Below are positions 2,876-38,300 of a stretch of 45,162 nucleotides of DNA, piece by piece. How positions within the stretch are numbered: the first letter of the stretch is position 1; each line of letters starts with the position of its first letter. The translations under genes and the position numbers were made by a program. The stretch is from a virus (taxonomy: Duplodnaviria > Heunggongvirae > Uroviricota > Caudoviricetes): IMG/VR virus record IMGVR_UViG_2684623059_000002. One strand, given 5' to 3'. The notes under the pieces are model-generated. The model worked only from the letters and a program-made list of their open reading frames with translations. It searched no databases and was not told the DNA's origin.

Positions 2876-3049
2876 AATTATCTCCATTTTTACAAATGAA
2901 CTTTGTTGATGCGGTGCCTGGTGCCTCCAGGTGACGTTAACCAGTTAACAATTAACGCCGGATACAGAGAATCCACCCATAACACTGTTTTTGGTTTTAA
3001 CTGTTCCACGTGCGCTTAGCCGCATTCACCGCATCACAAAATTCACTTT

Positions 3050-3107
3050 AAAAAGGGCGGCAGAGCAGTCACGGAGTAAAACTGATACCGCCAAACGCCA
3101 CCAGAAA
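3050..3107 (-). ncRNA. dicF: DicF small regulatory RNA (ftsZ-targeting sRNA of Qin-like prophages)
   Basis: Minus-strand sequence UUUCUGGUGGCGUUUGGCGGUAUCAGUUUUACUCCGUGACUGCUCUGCCGCCCUUUUU is near-identical to recalled E. coli DicF, including the GC hairpin and U-tract; correct synteny downstream of dicA. Confidence 0.8.
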
Positions 3108-3443
3108 ATTGATAACAGAGGGCGTTGTAGCGGGGTTGTCACTTAAGCGTATGGTCAACCTGACAACCCGGTGTCCTCAACGGGGAAGGAATAACCCCGC
3201 CATACTTACCGCCGCGCCATTTCGCGGAGTGCCACAACCGGAAGCGCACGGTCGAATTAAATTTAACGACACCGTACAGAGAGACCAATTTCGCCGTGTG
3301 CTTTCGCGTTATGCCCTGGCTTTTCAGGGATATATCCTTTCAGTAAACTGTCAGTACCGGATTCTTATCCGTGTCCGGCGCACGACCACACGTGACAGCG
3401 TGTTGGTCTCCATTTTTAACCCAGAACCTCAATGGAGGATAAA

Positions 3444-3653
3444 ATGCCAAACAAAAAAAGAAATCCGCTTATTGAAAAACAGATTGAATGCCTTGTAAAT
3501 CAACTCAGGCAATCAGGGTTATTAAAAACTCATTCAGAGTTGAGGCTCACAGAATCAGCATTCGACGATAAATTAAATAATGTCCTTTATAATGGCATTA
3601 TTGATTTTAATCGTTCTGTTGGTCGCCGCGGCCCTGCTGGTGTTTCCTTATAA
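3444..3653 (+). CDS. Hypothetical 69-aa protein, antisense to the dicB-type operon, AT-rich
   Basis: ORF with strong GGAGG RBS 7 nt upstream of ATG at 3444; stop abuts the convergent 216-aa gene; no family recognised. Confidence 0.4.
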   Translation: MPNKKRNPLIEKQIECLVNQLRQSGLLKTHSELRLTESAFDDKLNNVLYNGIIDFNRSVGRRGPAGVSL

Positions 3654-4304
3654 TTACCAGTCAATCCAGAGCGGACCGTGTTCAGCGTAAATATAACTGT
3701 ACACATCCAGATTATATTTGTGGTCTGTTAAGAACAGGCCGCAAATACATGCCGAAGCTTCCAGGGCAGCGGCTCTGTTACTGAATAACCATGTAGCAAC
3801 ATTCCAGCGTTTTTCTGCATCCCAGTCTTTCTCAAGGCCTGATACCATGAAGAAACCGTTAGTGTTGCCATCAAATAATTCTGTTTCCAGATTTTTAAGC
3901 AATGCCTGATGGACTCTTGCCAGGTATTCCGCCGGAATTTTGCCACGAATTCTGATGAGATTGTCATAAACAAACATGTTCCCCGCATATGGCGATTTTT
4001 CTTTCTTGTTTTTTAAACCAGCATCATGAGCAAACTGATCAATTTCTTCTTCCGTTGGTTTCGTATTGATGTTTTGCGCTGTCGTTTCTGCAATTTTATT
4101 TGCCACACTCTCTGAGTCGTGTTTATTTATAGACGCACAGAAATACAATCCGGTAAACGCATCGCGCACATTACGAGCTATATTATCAGTGTCTTTTTTC
4201 GTTACCGATTCCAATGCAAGTTCGTTCAGACGATGACGAAGTGTATGTGCTGCAATCTCCTGGATTGAAGTAGGTAAATCTTTAAATTCCATCGTCAACC
4301 TCAT
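3654..4304 (-). CDS. Hypothetical 216-aa protein inserted in the repressor-linked operon (moron; function unknown)
   Basis: Intact ORF with start overlapping the upstream gene stop (coupling); AT-rich relative to flanks; no recognisable motifs. Confidence 0.6.
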   Translation of the reverse strand: MRLTMEFKDLPTSIQEIAAHTLRHRLNELALESVTKKDTDNIARNVRDAFTGLYFCASINKHDSESVANKIAETTAQNINTKPTEEEIDQFAHDAGLKNKKEKSPYAGNMFVYDNLIRIRGKIPAEYLARVHQALLKNLETELFDGNTNGFFMVSGLEKDWDAEKRWNVATWLFSNRAAALEASACICGLFLTDHKYNLDVYSYIYAEHGPLWIDW

Positions 4305-4456
4305 CAGTCAGAGTTTCTTGCTAACCAGCGATGCGCGCCAGCTTCGGTTTTAAACGTTTTACTTTTGGTATACGTCATCGCGGTGAACGTGCCGTCCTGG
4401 TTGGGAAACACGTCGTACACCAGAGATTCGTTGTTGCCAAGATCGATAGTATCCAT
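4304..4456 (-). CDS. Small protein (50 aa) downstream of the repressor, YdfA-like position
   Basis: ORF beginning MDTIDLGNNES with GAGG RBS; synteny with Qin ydfA; track ORF 4304..4534 probably over-extended. Confidence 0.45.
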   Translation of the reverse strand: MDTIDLGNNESLVYDVFPNQDGTFTAMTYTKSKTFKTEAGAHRWLARNSD

Positions 4457-4540
4457 GCTGACCTCATTTCCCCTTAACGCCGGGGTAGCGGAACTGTTTG
4501 CTGAGAACACCGTGCGGTGTCTTGATGTAAGCAATATTAG

Positions 4541-4590
4541 CCATGGCTAACAATTTGGTCAAGCATTTTTGTTTGTCATAGCTAACATTC
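4541..4590. promoter_or_regulatory. Repeated operator-like motifs (TGGCTAACAAT / TAGCTAACATT) downstream of the repressor gene
   Basis: ccatggctaacaattt (4541-4556) and tcatagctaacattc (4576-4590) repeat the motif also found in the dicA-dicC intergenic region. Confidence 0.4.
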
Positions 4591-4622
4591 TGGGCGGCCA
4601 AAAAGATAACGCATTGATTGCG

Positions 4623-5030
4623 TTATCTTTTGTTTGTTCGTTGACGGGCTTTTAATAACTCTTCAAAGAGTTTGTTGAAATTTTTTACTCGGGCGCGCAT
4701 CTCGGTGAGCTGAGCATCCTGTTCTGATTCAGGCAATGCATTAAAAAGCTCAAGGAGCTCATGTTCTTTGGGGGATAGAGCAACTGGCTCCTCAATAGGT
4801 GGTGATGGCTGCTTGTCTTCATCGCCAAATAGAATCCATGTTGGCGAGCACTGCAGTACTTTGCTGAGGGCAAAAAGATTCTTTCCTGTAGGTTCGCTAT
4901 CATCCCGTTCCCATTGTGAAACCGATACATGAGAAATTTTCAGGGCTTTAGCAAGAGACCTTTGGGTGTATTTGAGGTTTTTTCGGCGATATCTAATGCG
5001 TTCGCCAATGGTTAGATTTTTTGTATCCAT
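4623..5030 (-). CDS. dicA: DicA-like HTH-XRE prophage repressor (135 aa)
   Basis: Near-identical to recalled E. coli DicA (…GERIRYRRKNLK.TQRSLAKALKISHVSVSQWER…); divergent from the Cro-like gene. Confidence 0.9.
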   Translation of the reverse strand: MDTKNLTIGERIRYRRKNLKYTQRSLAKALKISHVSVSQWERDDSEPTGKNLFALSKVLQCSPTWILFGDEDKQPSPPIEEPVALSPKEHELLELFNALPESEQDAQLTEMRARVKNFNKLFEELLKARQRTNKR

Positions 5031-5101
5031 AGTTAGCTAATGCTAAATCTTATTGACTATGTTTTTGTTAACATCTATTTTGTTAGTTATGGCTAACAAT
5101 T
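5028..5101. promoter_or_regulatory. Immunity-region operator/promoter: sigma70-like promoter for dicC (-35 TTGACT 5052-5057, 17-bp spacer, -10 TATTTT 5075-5080) flanked by TAGCTAA/TGGCTAACAAT operator-like repeats
   Basis: Consensus-like hexamers with 17-bp spacing upstream of dicC; inverted and direct copies of the GCTAAC motif. Confidence 0.5.
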
Positions 5102-5113
5102 AAGGTGCTTTAA

Positions 5114-5344
5114 ATGCTTAAAACTGACGCACTTTTGTATTTCGGTTCAAAAACAAAACTTGCACAAGCTGCTGGTATTCGTTTGGCTTCGCTTTATAGC
5201 TGGAAAGGGGAGCTAGTACCTGAAGGTCGCGCGATGCGCCTGCAAGATGCATCCGGCGGGGAACTTCAGTACGACCCCAAAGTTTATGACGAATATCGTA
5301 AGGCAAAGCGGGCGGGGCGGTTGAACAATGAAAATCACCCCTGA
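5114..5344 (+). CDS. dicC: DicC-like Cro-type repressor (76 aa)
   Basis: Near-identical to recalled DicC (MLKTDALLYFGSKTKLAQAAGIRLASLYSWKG...). Confidence 0.9.
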   Translation: MLKTDALLYFGSKTKLAQAAGIRLASLYSWKGELVPEGRAMRLQDASGGELQYDPKVYDEYRKAKRAGRLNNENHP

Positions 5345-5849
5345 ACAGGTTTGTGAGGCTCTGGATGCCTGGGTATGCCGACCAGGAATGACACAGGAGC
5401 AGGCGACGATATTAATCACGGAAGCATTCTGGGCTCTGAAAGAACGCCCGAACATCGATGTTCAACGCGTCACGTTTAATGATGGCGAGGTTGATCAACG
5501 GGCGTTGGGCGTTAACCGGGTGAAGATATTCGAACGCTGGAAAGCTATCGACACCAGGGATAAGCGGGAAAAATTCACGGCGCTGATTCCGGCAATTATG
5601 GAGGCTATCCGGATCAGCGATTTCAGGTTGTATTGTGAAATTACTGACGGAAAAAGCATTACGTACATGATCGCCGGGTTAAACAAAGAATATGGCGATG
5701 TGGTGGAGTCCGGTCTGCTTTTGGCAGATCCCGCTGTTGTGGAGCGTGAGACTGACGAGCTTATAGAAAAAGCTATTGCTTTCAAGCATGCGTATCGTCA
5801 GCAATATCAACAAAAAGCCGGATGGAATTATGAGTCTTCTTTTTGCTGA
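5328..5849 (+). CDS. Early-region hypothetical protein (173 aa); YdaT-like position, possible regulator
   Basis: ORF translationally coupled to dicC; position equals ydaT/cII slot of Rac/Qin-type prophages; family assignment not verified. Confidence 0.5.
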   Translation: MKITPEQVCEALDAWVCRPGMTQEQATILITEAFWALKERPNIDVQRVTFNDGEVDQRALGVNRVKIFERWKAIDTRDKREKFTALIPAIMEAIRISDFRLYCEITDGKSITYMIAGLNKEYGDVVESGLLLADPAVVERETDELIEKAIAFKHAYRQQYQQKAGWNYESSFC

Positions 5850-34146: not shown

Positions 34147-34685
34147 AAACGGGGGCTGAAGCCATCCGGGCGCTGGCCACACAGCTCCCGGCGTTTCGTC
34201 AGAAACTGAGCGACGGCTGGTATCAGGTACGCATTGCCGGGCGTGATACAGGTGAAACTGAATTATCAGCCCGTCTTAATGAACCGCTGGCAAATGGTGC
34301 CGTGATCCATATTGTGCCGCGCCTGGCGGGAGCCAAAAGTGGCGGCGTGTTTCAGGCCGTGCTGGGCGCAGCTGTTATGGCGGTTGCTATATGGATGCCT
34401 GGGGTGGGAATTATGACAAGTAATCTGCTGTTTTCTCTCGGTGCCAGTATGACGCTTGGCGGTGTGGCCCAGATGCTGGCACCCAGACCCAAAACTCCCC
34501 GAACACAGACAACGAATAACGGTAAGCAGAACACGTATTTCTCCTCTCTGGATAACCTGGTTGCCCAGGGCAATGTTCTGCCCGTTCTGTACGGTGAACT
34601 GCGAGTGGGGTCACGTGTTGTCTCTCAGGAGATCAGCACGGCAGATGAAGGGGATGGTGGTCAGGTTGTGGTTATTGGTCGCTGA
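34044..34685 (+). CDS. I: Tail assembly protein I
   Basis: Overlaps K 3' end as in lambda; hydrophobic central segment. Confidence 0.85.
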   Translation: MAATHTLPLASPGMARICLYGDLQRFGRRIDLRVKTGAEAIRALATQLPAFRQKLSDGWYQVRIAGRDTGETELSARLNEPLANGAVIHIVPRLAGAKSGGVFQAVLGAAVMAVAIWMPGVGIMTSNLLFSLGASMTLGGVAQMLAPRPKTPRTQTTNNGKQNTYFSSLDNLVAQGNVLPVLYGELRVGSRVVSQEISTADEGDGGQVVVIGR

Positions 34686-34727
34686 TAATCACCGCCAGCT
34701 ATGACGGTGATTGCTTTAGGCTGTTTG

Positions 34728-35249
34728 TTATTTAATTATTCCGCATGCCAGTCTTGCGCCTCCCCCCCCCAGAGGAGCAGGTGAATCGGAATGATTATCC
34801 CCTCCGGCATGAATCATGATCGCCCGTTCTTTTATCTGGCTTATTTTTTTTATTTTTGGACTCAGAACCGGGTTTTCTGCATTTCCTTCTGAGTTGACAT
34901 AGAGTGCTGGTAGATCACCCAGATGGCCCTCCGGATTGTACGGCCCAAGATGTTTATTTGTTTGTTCAGGATCATAATGCCCACCGGCAGCAAGAGCTGG
35001 CACTTTTTTTCCATTAATCAGACCGGGATCACAACTGGCATTTTCATGGATATGAAAGCCATGTAACCCTGGTGGCAGTTCTTTCAGATGAGGAGTGAAC
35101 AGCAATCCGTAGCTGGTTTCTGAAATAGTTATTTCCCCTATATTTTTCCCTACTCCTTCTGAGGAAACGAGATTTACAGGGATCGTCATTGTATCAGCCA
35201 TTACGGCTCCACTAAGTAGCGCAGTTACAGCAAGTATTTTTTTTATCAT
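34728..35249 (-). CDS. sodC: Periplasmic Cu,Zn superoxide dismutase (SodC) moron
   Basis: Signal peptide plus Cu/Zn-SOD motifs (GFHIHE..., GGGGARLACGII); located between I and J on the opposite strand. Confidence 0.9.
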   Translation of the reverse strand: MIKKILAVTALLSGAVMADTMTIPVNLVSSEGVGKNIGEITISETSYGLLFTPHLKELPPGLHGFHIHENASCDPGLINGKKVPALAAGGHYDPEQTNKHLGPYNPEGHLGDLPALYVNSEGNAENPVLSPKIKKISQIKERAIMIHAGGDNHSDSPAPLGGGGARLACGIIK

Positions 35250-35382
35250 AAATACCCCGTCATTTCGTGTTGTTAATCAAGGTGATTTAAGTTTTAACAA
35301 ATGAAATACAACAGATGCATTTTTGTTGCAAGCGGTCGTTATATGGTTCGCATAAAATTGATTACTGTTTCGGGAATTATCT

Positions 35383-38300
35383 ATGGGTAAAGGTGGCAGT
35401 AAGGGGCATACCCCGCGCGAAGTGAAGGACAACCTGAAATCATCCCAGCTGCTGAGCGTGATAGACGCCATCAGTGAAGGACCGATTGAAGGTCCGGTGG
35501 ATGGATTAAAAAGTGTGCTGCTGAACAGTACGCCAGTGCTGGACAGTGAGGGGAATACCAATATCTCCGGTGTCACGGTGGTGTTCCGGGCAGGTGAGCA
35601 GGAGCAGACACCGCCGGAGGGATTTGAATCCTCCGGCTCCGAGACGGTGCTGGGTACGGAGGTGAAGTACGACACGCCGATTACCCGGACCATCACATCG
35701 GCAAACATCGACCGTCTGCGCTTTACCTTCGGTGTGCAGGCACTGGTGGAAACCACTTCAAAGGGGGACCGGAATCCGTCGGAAGTTCGCCTGCTGGTTC
35801 AGATACAACGTAATGGTGGCTGGGTGACGGAAAAAGACATCACCATTAAGGGCAAAACCACCTCGCAGTATCTGGCCTCGGTGGTGGTGGGTAACCTGCC
35901 GCCGCGCCCGTTTAATATCCGGATGCGCAGGATGACGCCGGACAGCACCACAGACCAGCTGCAGAACAAAACGCTCTGGTCGTCATACACCGAAATCATC
36001 GATGTGCAACAGTGCTACCCGAACACGGCACTGGTCGGCGTGCAGGTGGACTCGGAACAGTTCGGCAGTCAGCAGGTGAGCCGTAATTATCATCTTCGCG
36101 GGCGCATTCTGCAGGTGCCGTCGAACTATAACCCGCAGACGCGGCAATACAGCGGTATCTGGGACGGAACGTTTAAGCCAGCATACAGCAACAATATGGC
36201 CTGGTGTCTGTGGGATATGCTGACCCATCCGCGCTACGGCATGGGGAAGCGTCTCGGTGCGGCGGATGTGGACAAATGGGCGCTGTATGTCATCGGCCAG
36301 AATTGCGACCAGTCGGTGCCGGACGGCTTTGGCGGCACGGAGCCGCGCATCACCTGTAACGCTTACCTGACCACACAGCGCAAGGCGTGGGATGTGCTCA
36401 GTGATTTCTGCTCGGCGATGCGCTGTATGCCGGTATGGAACGGGCAGACGCTGACGTTCGTGCAGGACCGACAGTCGGATAAGGTGTGGACCTATAACCG
36501 CAGTAATGTGGTGATGCCGGATGATGGCGCGCCGTTCCGCTACAGCTTCAGCGCCCTGAAGGACCGCCATAACGCCGTTGAGGTGAACTGGATTGACCCG
36601 GACAACGGCTGGGAGACGGCGACAGAGCTGGTTGAAGACACGCAGGCCATTGCCCGTTACGGTCGTAACGTCACGAAGATGGATGCCTTTGGCTGTACCA
36701 GCCGGGGGCAGGCGCACCGCGCCGGGCTGTGGCTGATTAAAACGGAACTGCTGGAAACGCAGACCGTGGACTTCAGCGTGGGTGCAGAAGGGCTTCGCCA
36801 TGTGCCGGGAGACGTCATTGAAATCTGCGATGATGACTATGCGGGTATCAGCATCGGTGGTCGCGTGCTGGCGGTGAACAGCCAGACCCGGACGCTGACG
36901 CTCGACCGTGAAATCACGCTGCCAGCCTCCGGCACCACACTGATAAGCCTGGTCGACGGGACGGGGAGTCCGGTCAGCGTGGAGGTCCAGTCCGTCACCG
37001 ACGGCGTGCAGGTGAAAGTGAACCGTATCCCTGACGGCGTTGCCGGATACAGCGTGTGGGGGCTGAAGCTGCCGACGCTGCGCCAGCGCCTGTTCCGCTG
37101 TGTGAGTATCCGTGAGAACGATGACGGCACGTATGCCATCACTGCCGTGCAGCATGTACCGGAAAAAGAAGCCATCGTGGATAACGGGGCGCACTTTGAC
37201 GGCGACCAGAGCGGCACGGTGAACGGTGTCACGCCGCCAGCGGTGCAGCACCTGACCGCCGAAGTTTCGGCAGACAGCGGGGAATATCAGGTACTGGCGC
37301 GCTGGGACACGCCGAAGGTGGTGAAGGGGGTGAGCTTTATGCTTCGCCTGACTGTGGCAGCAGACGACGGCAGTGAGCGGCTGGTCAGCACGGCCAGGAC
37401 GACGGAAACCACATACCGCTTCACGCAACTGGCGCCAGGGAACTACAGGCTGACAGTCCGGGCGGTAAATGCGTGGGGACAGCAGGGCGACCCGGCGTCG
37501 GTATCGTTCAGGATTGCCGCACCGGCAGCGCCGTCACAGATTGAGCTGACGCCGGGCTATTTTCAGATAACCGCCACGCCGCATCTTGCGGTTTATGACC
37601 CGACGGTACAGTTTGAGTTCTGGTTTTCGGAAAAGCGGATTACCGATATCAGGCAGGTTGAAACCACAGCCCGCTATCTTGGCACGGGGATGTACTGGAT
37701 AGCCGCCAGTATCAATATCAAACCGGGCCATGATTATTACTTTTATATCCGCAGCGTGAACACCGTTGGTAAATCGGCATTCGTGGAGGCTGTCGGTCAG
37801 GCGAGCGATGATGCGGAAGGTTACCTGGATTTTTTCAAAGGCAAGATAACCGAATCTCATCTCGGCAAGGAGCTGCTGGAAAAAGTCGAGCTGACGGAGG
37901 ATAACGCCAGCAAACTGGAGGAGTTTTCGAAAGAGTGGAAGGATGTCAACGATAAATGGAATGCCATGTGGGCTGTCAAAATTGAGCAGACCAAAGACGG
38001 CAAACATTATGTCGCGGGTATTGGCCTCAGTATGGAGGACACGCCGGAAGGCAAGCTGAGCCAGTTTCTGGTTGCCGCTAACCGTATTGCGTTTATTGAT
38101 CCGTCTAATGGCAACACACGACCAATGTTTGTTGGTCAGGGCGATCAGATATTCATGAACGACGTGTTCCTGAAGCGCCTGACGGCCCCGACCATCACCA
38201 GCGGCGGCAATCCACCGGCATTTTCCCTGACACCGGACGGGCGGCTGACGGCGAAAAATGCTGATATCAGCGGTAACGTGAATGCGAACTCCGGGACGCT

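Follow-up and report, generated by a model that had tools for sequence, protein, structure and literature searches.

The window analysed here, the whole 45,162-nucleotide stretch of IMG/VR virus record IMGVR_UViG_2684623059_000002 (Caudoviricetes), carries near its left end a convergent pair of genes, neither of whose products has a characterised relative. Comparison of homologous loci indicates that the co-inherited unit consists of the C-terminal α/β domain of the larger, 212-aa protein together with the smaller, 69-aa protein. The pair heads the operon for the toxic division inhibitors DicF and DicB/Kil and lies beside the lysis–lysogeny switch. We tentatively favour a reading in which the two are dedicated partner proteins whose synthesis falls in opposite phases of the life cycle of the prophage, a possibility that we rate as substantial but short of probable.

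The immunity and early-left region of a Qin/dicF-type lambdoid prophage occupies the left end of the window. The minus strand carries, from right to left, a DicA-like HTH repressor of 135 aa (4623–5030), ydfA (DUF1391; 4304–4459), which is the first operon gene, the large gene of the pair, the DicF sRNA (3055–3106; Rfam score 76.4 bits against a gathering score of 48), a Kil-type FtsZ inhibitor (2654–2887; NF008465 with an E value of 2e-41, PHROG 294) and an 823-aa exonuclease (59–2530). The plus strand carries the small gene and, beyond the repressor, a P22-Cro/DicC-like gene (5114–5344), after which the replication genes follow. A DicA-like repressor, a DUF1391 ydfA and DicF are thus ordered on one strand with a repressor-flanked promoter, as in the Qin-type dicBF operon. 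The dicB-type operon proposed in the initial annotation stands for the repressor, ydfA and DicF; it does not stand for the division inhibitor, as the reading frame downstream of dicF (2654–2887) is not dicB but Kil, matched by NF008465 as 'FtsZ inhibitor protein'. Relatives of this locus (L001, L007–L010 and prophage Sp11 of O157:H7 Sakai) have dicB where the window has Kil, and the division-inhibitor slot is therefore also mosaic. Elsewhere in the window, a full-length match to the Rfam sok antitoxin RNA (RF01794, 99.9 bits; 9744–9917, plus) indicates a putative hok/sok-type type I toxin–antitoxin locus in the early-right region, and four tRNA genes are clustered within about 300 bp (13305–13611, plus).

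The dicBF operon of K-12 Qin shares with the window its repressor type, promoter region, ydfA, long untranslated region and DicF, and differs in having ydfB–ydfC where the window has the gene pair and dicB where the window has Kil. In the alignment with K-12 Qin the window is nearly identical through ydfA, and homology returns at about 3385 and extends leftwards past the long untranslated region and DicF. A cassette of about 920 bp (about 3385–4305) therefore stands in for ydfB–ydfC, as had been proposed from the gene order. The large protein was considered as a possible relative of YdfC, and the candidate was dropped as no similarity exists between YdfC and the 212-aa protein. The GC content of the cassette is 0.38–0.44, compared with 0.50–0.53 in the left flank; the segment is thus AT-rich as initially described, though only moderately so, and the repressor region is just as rich in AT. 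The left boundary of the cassette, at about 3371–3385, falls inside the leader of the small gene (3366–3443).

The large open reading frame encodes 216 aa when read from its upstream ATG (3654–4304, minus), which overlaps the stop codon of ydfA by 1 nt. The initial annotation had taken this full frame as the gene. The frame holds, but the start most likely lies at 4292, 11 nt after the ydfA stop, because all homologues and the RefSeq annotations begin there (MEFKDLP..., with a GAGG ribosome-binding site); the large gene, the second of the early-left operon, would then encode 212 aa (3654–4292, minus). Its product matches PHROG 2151 from end to end (E value of 9.3e-145, profile positions 1–212 of 212). 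The small gene (3444–3653, plus) encodes 69 aa, or 73 aa from an alternative start at 3432 (3432–3653, plus), and matches PHROG 4274 over its full length (E value of 1.4e-51, positions 1–69 of 69). Both PHROGs are phage protein families without an assigned function. The Shine–Dalgarno sequence GGAGGA is followed by the four bases TAAA and then by the ATG at 3444, and the stop codons of the two genes stand back to back (TAA/TTA, 3651–3656), so that the convergent plus-strand gene with a strong ribosome-binding site and an abutting stop is confirmed as first described.

Homologues of the large protein comprise 147 cluster representatives (E value of at most 0.001). Identity ranges from 64% to 99% among the matches listed (120 of the 147); these are mostly from E. 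coli, with E. albertii, E. marmotae and Salmonella also represented, and an identical 212-aa sequence is on record from E. albertii. For the small protein, 36 homologues passed the E-value threshold. Compared with homologues in three other loci, the large gene gives dN/dS ratios of 0.23–0.53 and the small frame gives 0.14–0.26 with an excess of third-position changes, and the small frame is under purifying selection. With the PHROG matches, the numbers of homologues and the low dN/dS of the small frame, both genes are real and not chance open reading frames. The plus-strand frame, which the initial annotation had allowed might prove unconserved in related prophages, is conserved. In eight IMG/VR loci (L014, L019, L021, L027, L045, L057, L063 and L068) the A7 run at 3451–3457 (codons 3–5 of the small gene) is an A6 run, which causes a frameshift just past the start. 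The A6 allele could stem from sequencing errors in older assemblies or from real on/off variation by slip-strand changes, and it may also account for the 66-aa 'partial' proteins in the cluster tables.

The large protein consists of two parts: an N-terminal helical domain with a linker (residues 1–97; 4002–4292, minus) and a C-terminal α/β domain (residues 98–212; 3657–4001, minus) with the order β-β-α-β-β-α-β. In the predicted model of the C-terminal domain pLDDT is mostly 80–90 (residues 100–200), with one block at 61 and the last 12 or so residues below 50. The helical 'MEFKDLP' module, which spans residues 1 to about 55–97, occurs elsewhere alone or on other C-termini in Stx2a and other lambdoid phages (PHROGs 1363, 9419, 6937 and 33007), and recombines independently of the remainder of the large gene. 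An exhaustive HMMER search returned only 34 representatives, among which the modular structure is visible and no annotated relative is found; a C-terminal-domain profile found no additional relatives in a further word-indexed homologue search. A Prp-type cysteine protease was considered for this domain and rejected, as the E. coli domains and the remote one described below share no conserved Cys or His. The small protein is modelled with low confidence (pLDDT 61) as two helices (residues 8–24 and 37–58) and a disordered tail. The predicted helices are amphipathic, and the C-terminal tail RRG(x)PAG..L is invariant.

Searches of Pfam, NCBIfam and PADLOC gave nothing significant for the two proteins, for all 35 alignment members or for the remote pair. 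PADLOC-DB v2.0.0 contained no family at an E value of at most 1 for either window protein, and none at 0.01 or below for the remote pair or the neighbouring antisense genes. Sequence profiles of the PDB gave no match to either family even at an E value of 10, and fold searches returned no homologue, the matches being generic α/β sandwiches. The profile and structure searches suggested at the outset have therefore yielded no characterised homologue. No mention of Ybl81, the WP accessions or ECs2211/ECs2212 was found in a literature search, and ECs2211/ECs2212 are absent from the supplements of one O157 prophage-induction RNA-seq paper. The defence function first proposed for the pair gains no positive evidence from the PADLOC and homology searches or from the literature.

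The pair is widespread. A 375-bp probe containing the small gene and the junction was matched over at least 80% of its length in 597 of 5426 complete E. coli genomes (about 11%). Carriers include O157:H7, O145, O111 and O103 STEC, as well as E. albertii and Salmonella; in prophage Sp11 of O157:H7 Sakai the large and small genes are ECs_2211 and ECs_2212, respectively, which makes the pair experimentally tractable. It is found in lambdoid prophages with at least four different repressors and also in a Salmonella element of non-lambdoid type, whose genes include a Mu-type HTH regulator and members of the Ash family; the stop-to-stop geometry does not differ between the two settings. Every locus examined has the two genes converging from opposite strands. 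The C-terminal-domain coding sequence adjoins the small gene in all 75 IMG/VR loci retrieved by the small protein, and the small gene is present in 74 of the 80 loci retrieved by the C-terminal domain. The coding ends are parted by just the two adjacent stop codons in 70 of these 74 loci; the other four (L074, L075, L089 and L096) have 6–16 extra bases or an overlap. Among the six C-terminal-domain loci that lack the small gene, two end at a contig edge, one is cut by an insertion and three share an internal deletion.

Several relatives carry other genes in or near the same variable slot. L081 has a 211-aa protein with Cys-rich motifs (4514–5149, minus) and L007–L010 a DUF1883 protein (5376–5639, minus), both lying against the early-left operon; in L096 a 155-aa protein with hydrophobic stretches (1877–2344, minus) lies immediately upstream of the small gene. 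Apart from DUF1883, these antisense genes have no Pfam or PADLOC match. In L008 a PaaA2–ParE toxin–antitoxin pair (2956–3437) is situated between the repressor and ydfA, and the same locus also has the cassette; independent accessory modules therefore stack here.

The unit of inheritance can be delimited more closely from the diverged E. coli loci. The identity of the N-terminal domain varies from 45 to 82%, whereas the C-terminal domain (74–83%) and the small protein (83–86%) vary in step, which places recombination inside the large gene and not between the C-terminal domain and the small gene. The decisive example is the remote locus L096, which, like its relative L097, came from a scan of viral contigs; genome and metagenome scans for remote relatives gave nothing useful. 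The L096 large protein (203 aa) has an unrelated N-terminal module (MFNVKRNG...) and a C-terminal domain that is 40% identical to that of the window (E value of 3e-14). It is met by a convergent small frame of 64 aa, 46% identical to the small protein of the window (E value of 3e-13), and the 3' ends of the two genes overlap by 11 nt. The small proteins of L096 and the window have in common SGLLKT and the C-terminal RRG-PAGV-L. L097 has the same N-terminal module as L096 and lacks both the C-terminal domain and the small gene. The initial suggestion of an unrecognised two-gene accessory module is thus upheld: the pair moves together through different prophage backgrounds and is convergent even at 40–46% identity.

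These data bear on the simplest alternative, that the two genes are functionally unrelated neighbours which hitch-hike because no intergenic DNA is available for recombination. The spacing between the stops is zero, junctions in lambdoid mosaics usually lie between genes, and such tight linkage could on its own account for part of the co-inheritance. Recombination nevertheless takes place within the large gene, at the boundary of its N- and C-terminal domains some 350 bp from the stops; the C-terminal domain and the small gene stay together down to 40–46% identity across unrelated N-terminal domains and flanks; and L097 is without both at once. We therefore regard mere hitch-hiking as distinctly unlikely; if it were correct, the genes would be an ordinary pair of phage ORFans.

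The timing of expression may be judged from the operon. The predicted early-left promoter (dicBp-like, TTGACC-17-TAATAT; 4562–4534, minus) lies between the repressor gene and ydfA and has on its flanks TTAGC...GCTAA palindromes of a kind that recurs between the repressor and cro-like genes. Its K-12 counterpart, dicBp, is repressed by DicA and relieved by an antirepressor; in a subpopulation of cells it is also active spontaneously, with toxic products (bioRxiv 10.1101/2023.04.14.536235). In K-12, DicF is processed out of a polycistronic RNA (PMC5069750). The large gene lies inside the early operon in other contexts too, and a consensus scan detected no promoter of its own. Situated behind a promoter that is DicA-repressed in K-12, it should be off in lysogens and on early after derepression, and would accordingly be an early-lytic gene, unlike rexAB. 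The reasoning by analogy with rexAB in the initial annotation, by which the large gene was a repressor-linked lysogen gene, is not borne out. A cooperative anti-phage defence in which both proteins act in the lysogen, as those of rexAB do, would suit the variable accessory slot beside the immunity region, the AT-rich mobile cassette and the co-inheritance of the two genes. However, the genes lie on opposite strands and the large one belongs to a DicA-repressed operon, so that co-expression in lysogens is unlikely; as PADLOC also gave no match, we consider such a defence very unlikely.

The early transcript has to pass through the small gene in the antisense direction before it reaches DicF. 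A scan found no terminator-like site between or just beyond the two stops; the first such site on the plus strand is a two-way hairpin at the end of the repressor gene (4601–4631). With its 13-bp stem, this hairpin extends into the 3' end of the repressor gene; T-rich tracts lie to either side of it, and it could terminate both minus-strand repressor transcripts and plus-strand antisense transcripts. Such a layout raises the alternative that the small gene acts mainly in cis, its convergent transcription damping a leaky and toxic dicF/kil operon while its protein is secondary. The convergent arrangement, the lack of a terminator as far as the hairpin and the spontaneous activity of the toxic dicB operon in K-12 would all fit. 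Purifying selection on the small protein and the motifs that it shares unchanged with the 46%-identical remote homologue point instead to the protein, as a promoter alone needs no conserved reading frame, and we hold a primarily cis-acting role to be highly improbable.

No convincing σ70 promoter was found for the small gene in a consensus scan, which is the weakest point of the partner reading set out below; the sole match, TTAACC-18-TAAAAT (3416–3445), overlaps the start codon. Two candidates picked by eye (GTGACA-17-TTTAAC and TTTTCA-17-TAAACT) were rejected because they are not conserved across contexts. The leader of the small gene (3366–3443, plus) is conserved and contains two hairpins, and about 75 bp upstream of the gene is conserved in the Salmonella element and hence belongs to the mobile unit. 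An invariant CTCCAT (3408–3413) can pair with ATGGAG (3432–3437) in the Shine–Dalgarno region, the leader RNA folds better than shuffled sequence (z = -2.06), and pairing in the middle hairpin is kept in L096 although the arms differ. Conservation of a structured leader that would sequester the Shine–Dalgarno sequence suggests that translation of the small gene is regulated. The leader hairpin ACACG-TGACAG-CGTGT (3388–3403) is present in other loci, including the equivalents in L005, L007 and L074, as its exact reverse complement (ACACG-CTGTCA-CGTGT), which looks like a small inversion of the loop; at the same place L096 has a different hairpin, CCCAAC-N7-GTTGGG.

Our preferred reading of the pair as dedicated partners rests on the conservation of both genes, the co-inheritance of the C-terminal domain with the small gene, the retained layout, the L096/L097 comparison, the operon context, a geometry like that of λ N/sieB and the structured leader. 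According to this reading, the 212-aa protein would be an early-lytic accessory protein made from the DicA-repressed early-left promoter just after ydfA, and would combine a shufflable N-terminal helical module with a portable C-terminal α/β 'receiver' domain. The 69-aa two-helix protein would be the specific binding partner of the C-terminal domain, most likely an inhibitor or regulator that restrains the large protein while the early operon is off or leaky. As the adjoining stops leave no room for a terminator, derepression of the early-left operon would send strong transcription across the small gene on the opposite strand. Polymerase collision and antisense RNA should then silence the small gene, and the large protein would thereby be freed. 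The physical interaction, the sign of the regulation, the expression of the small gene in lysogens and a cellular target of the large protein are inferences.

The same reading has a more speculative extension, which we think rather unlikely but worth stating. The 'receiver' domain would be portable and fusable to unrelated early-lytic effector modules (MEFKDLP and MFNVKRNG), and would be controlled by the convergent small protein on the lysogenic strand. It would form a protein-level safety catch that couples effector activity to the lysis–lysogeny state, reinforced by convergent-transcription silencing. If true, phages would have a further, new class of regulatory or addiction-like module, separate from the operonic toxin–antitoxin systems.

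Variants in which one of the genes has decayed limit what either could be. The small gene is deleted in L081, L087 and L091 and frameshifted in L004; the N-terminus of the large gene is broken in L063, L068 and L075, and the small gene is intact in L075. The lysogen can thus do without either gene, and a classical addiction module is not what the pair represents. An asymmetry in lost partners was considered as a pointer to a 'toxin' and discarded, since decay variants of both genes occur at similar low frequency.

A close rival of the effector/inhibitor version of the partner reading is an exclusion factor with a self-antidote, following SieB/Esc logic. Here the small protein would be expressed in the lysogen and block superinfecting phages, and the early-expressed C-terminal domain would neutralise it and so allow the resident phage, once induced, to grow. 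The small gene is antisense-embedded and stop-to-stop, as λ sieB is relative to N, other antisense genes occupy the same slot in relatives (the DUF1883, 211-aa and 155-aa proteins described above), and the pairing of a lytic-strand gene with a lysogenic-strand gene also fits. Against this, neither a transmembrane segment nor an effector domain can be recognised in the small protein, which matches nothing in PADLOC or Pfam and does not match SieB, and the scan found no promoter for its gene. The broken large gene beside an intact small gene in L075 would also be predicted to cripple the phage, though such prophages may already be defective. We judge this version to be unlikely, although not negligible. 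Should the pair prove to be of either the effector/inhibitor or the exclusion/antidote kind, it would be a new module type among the prophage accessory genes by which induction, superinfection and prophage–prophage competition are shaped in Shiga-toxigenic E. coli.

The two proteins and the linkage of the domain to the small gene are undescribed; accessory pairs of prophages in which one partner is embedded in antisense are not without precedent. The nearest precedent is in λ, where sieB (34482–35036, plus) and N (35037–35438, minus) are convergent and abut in the PL operon. There, too, a gene on the opposite strand of a repressor-controlled early-left operon converges on an early gene near the promoter, and the coding regions end on adjacent bases (35036/35037 in λ, 3653/3654 in the window). 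The 184-aa SieB (RefSeq) is an exclusion protein, compared with 69 aa and two predicted helices for the small protein. The window pair has no sequence or fold similarity to N or SieB. λ N and SieB are not known to be a co-evolving protein pair. The small gene thus has the antisense position of a SieB-type exclusion gene, convergent on an early gene in the early-left operon, and its product shows no homology to SieB in Pfam or PHROG; the likeness to sieB drawn in the initial annotation holds for the position of this antisense gene and not for the large gene.

Type II toxin–antitoxin pairs near prophage repressors, such as paaR2–paaA2–parE2 of O157:H7, likewise combine a small helical protein with an α/β domain of about 115 residues. 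Those pairs form one operon, whereas the window pair is convergent; the latter has no recognisable toxin or antitoxin domain in Pfam, NCBIfam or the PDB, and, unlike such systems, its natural variants without the small gene or with a broken large gene persist. In pore-forming colicins, an inducible gene in a repressed operon is followed just downstream, on the other strand, by a small convergent immunity gene. The likeness to the window pair would lie in this convergent small partner; the differences are the absence of homology, the membrane location of the immunity proteins and the setting, which is a plasmid bacteriocin and not a prophage early operon. If the two window proteins are indeed partners, their logic would be nearer to that of pore-forming colicin/immunity pairs or of λ N/sieB than to that of operonic toxin–antitoxin systems.
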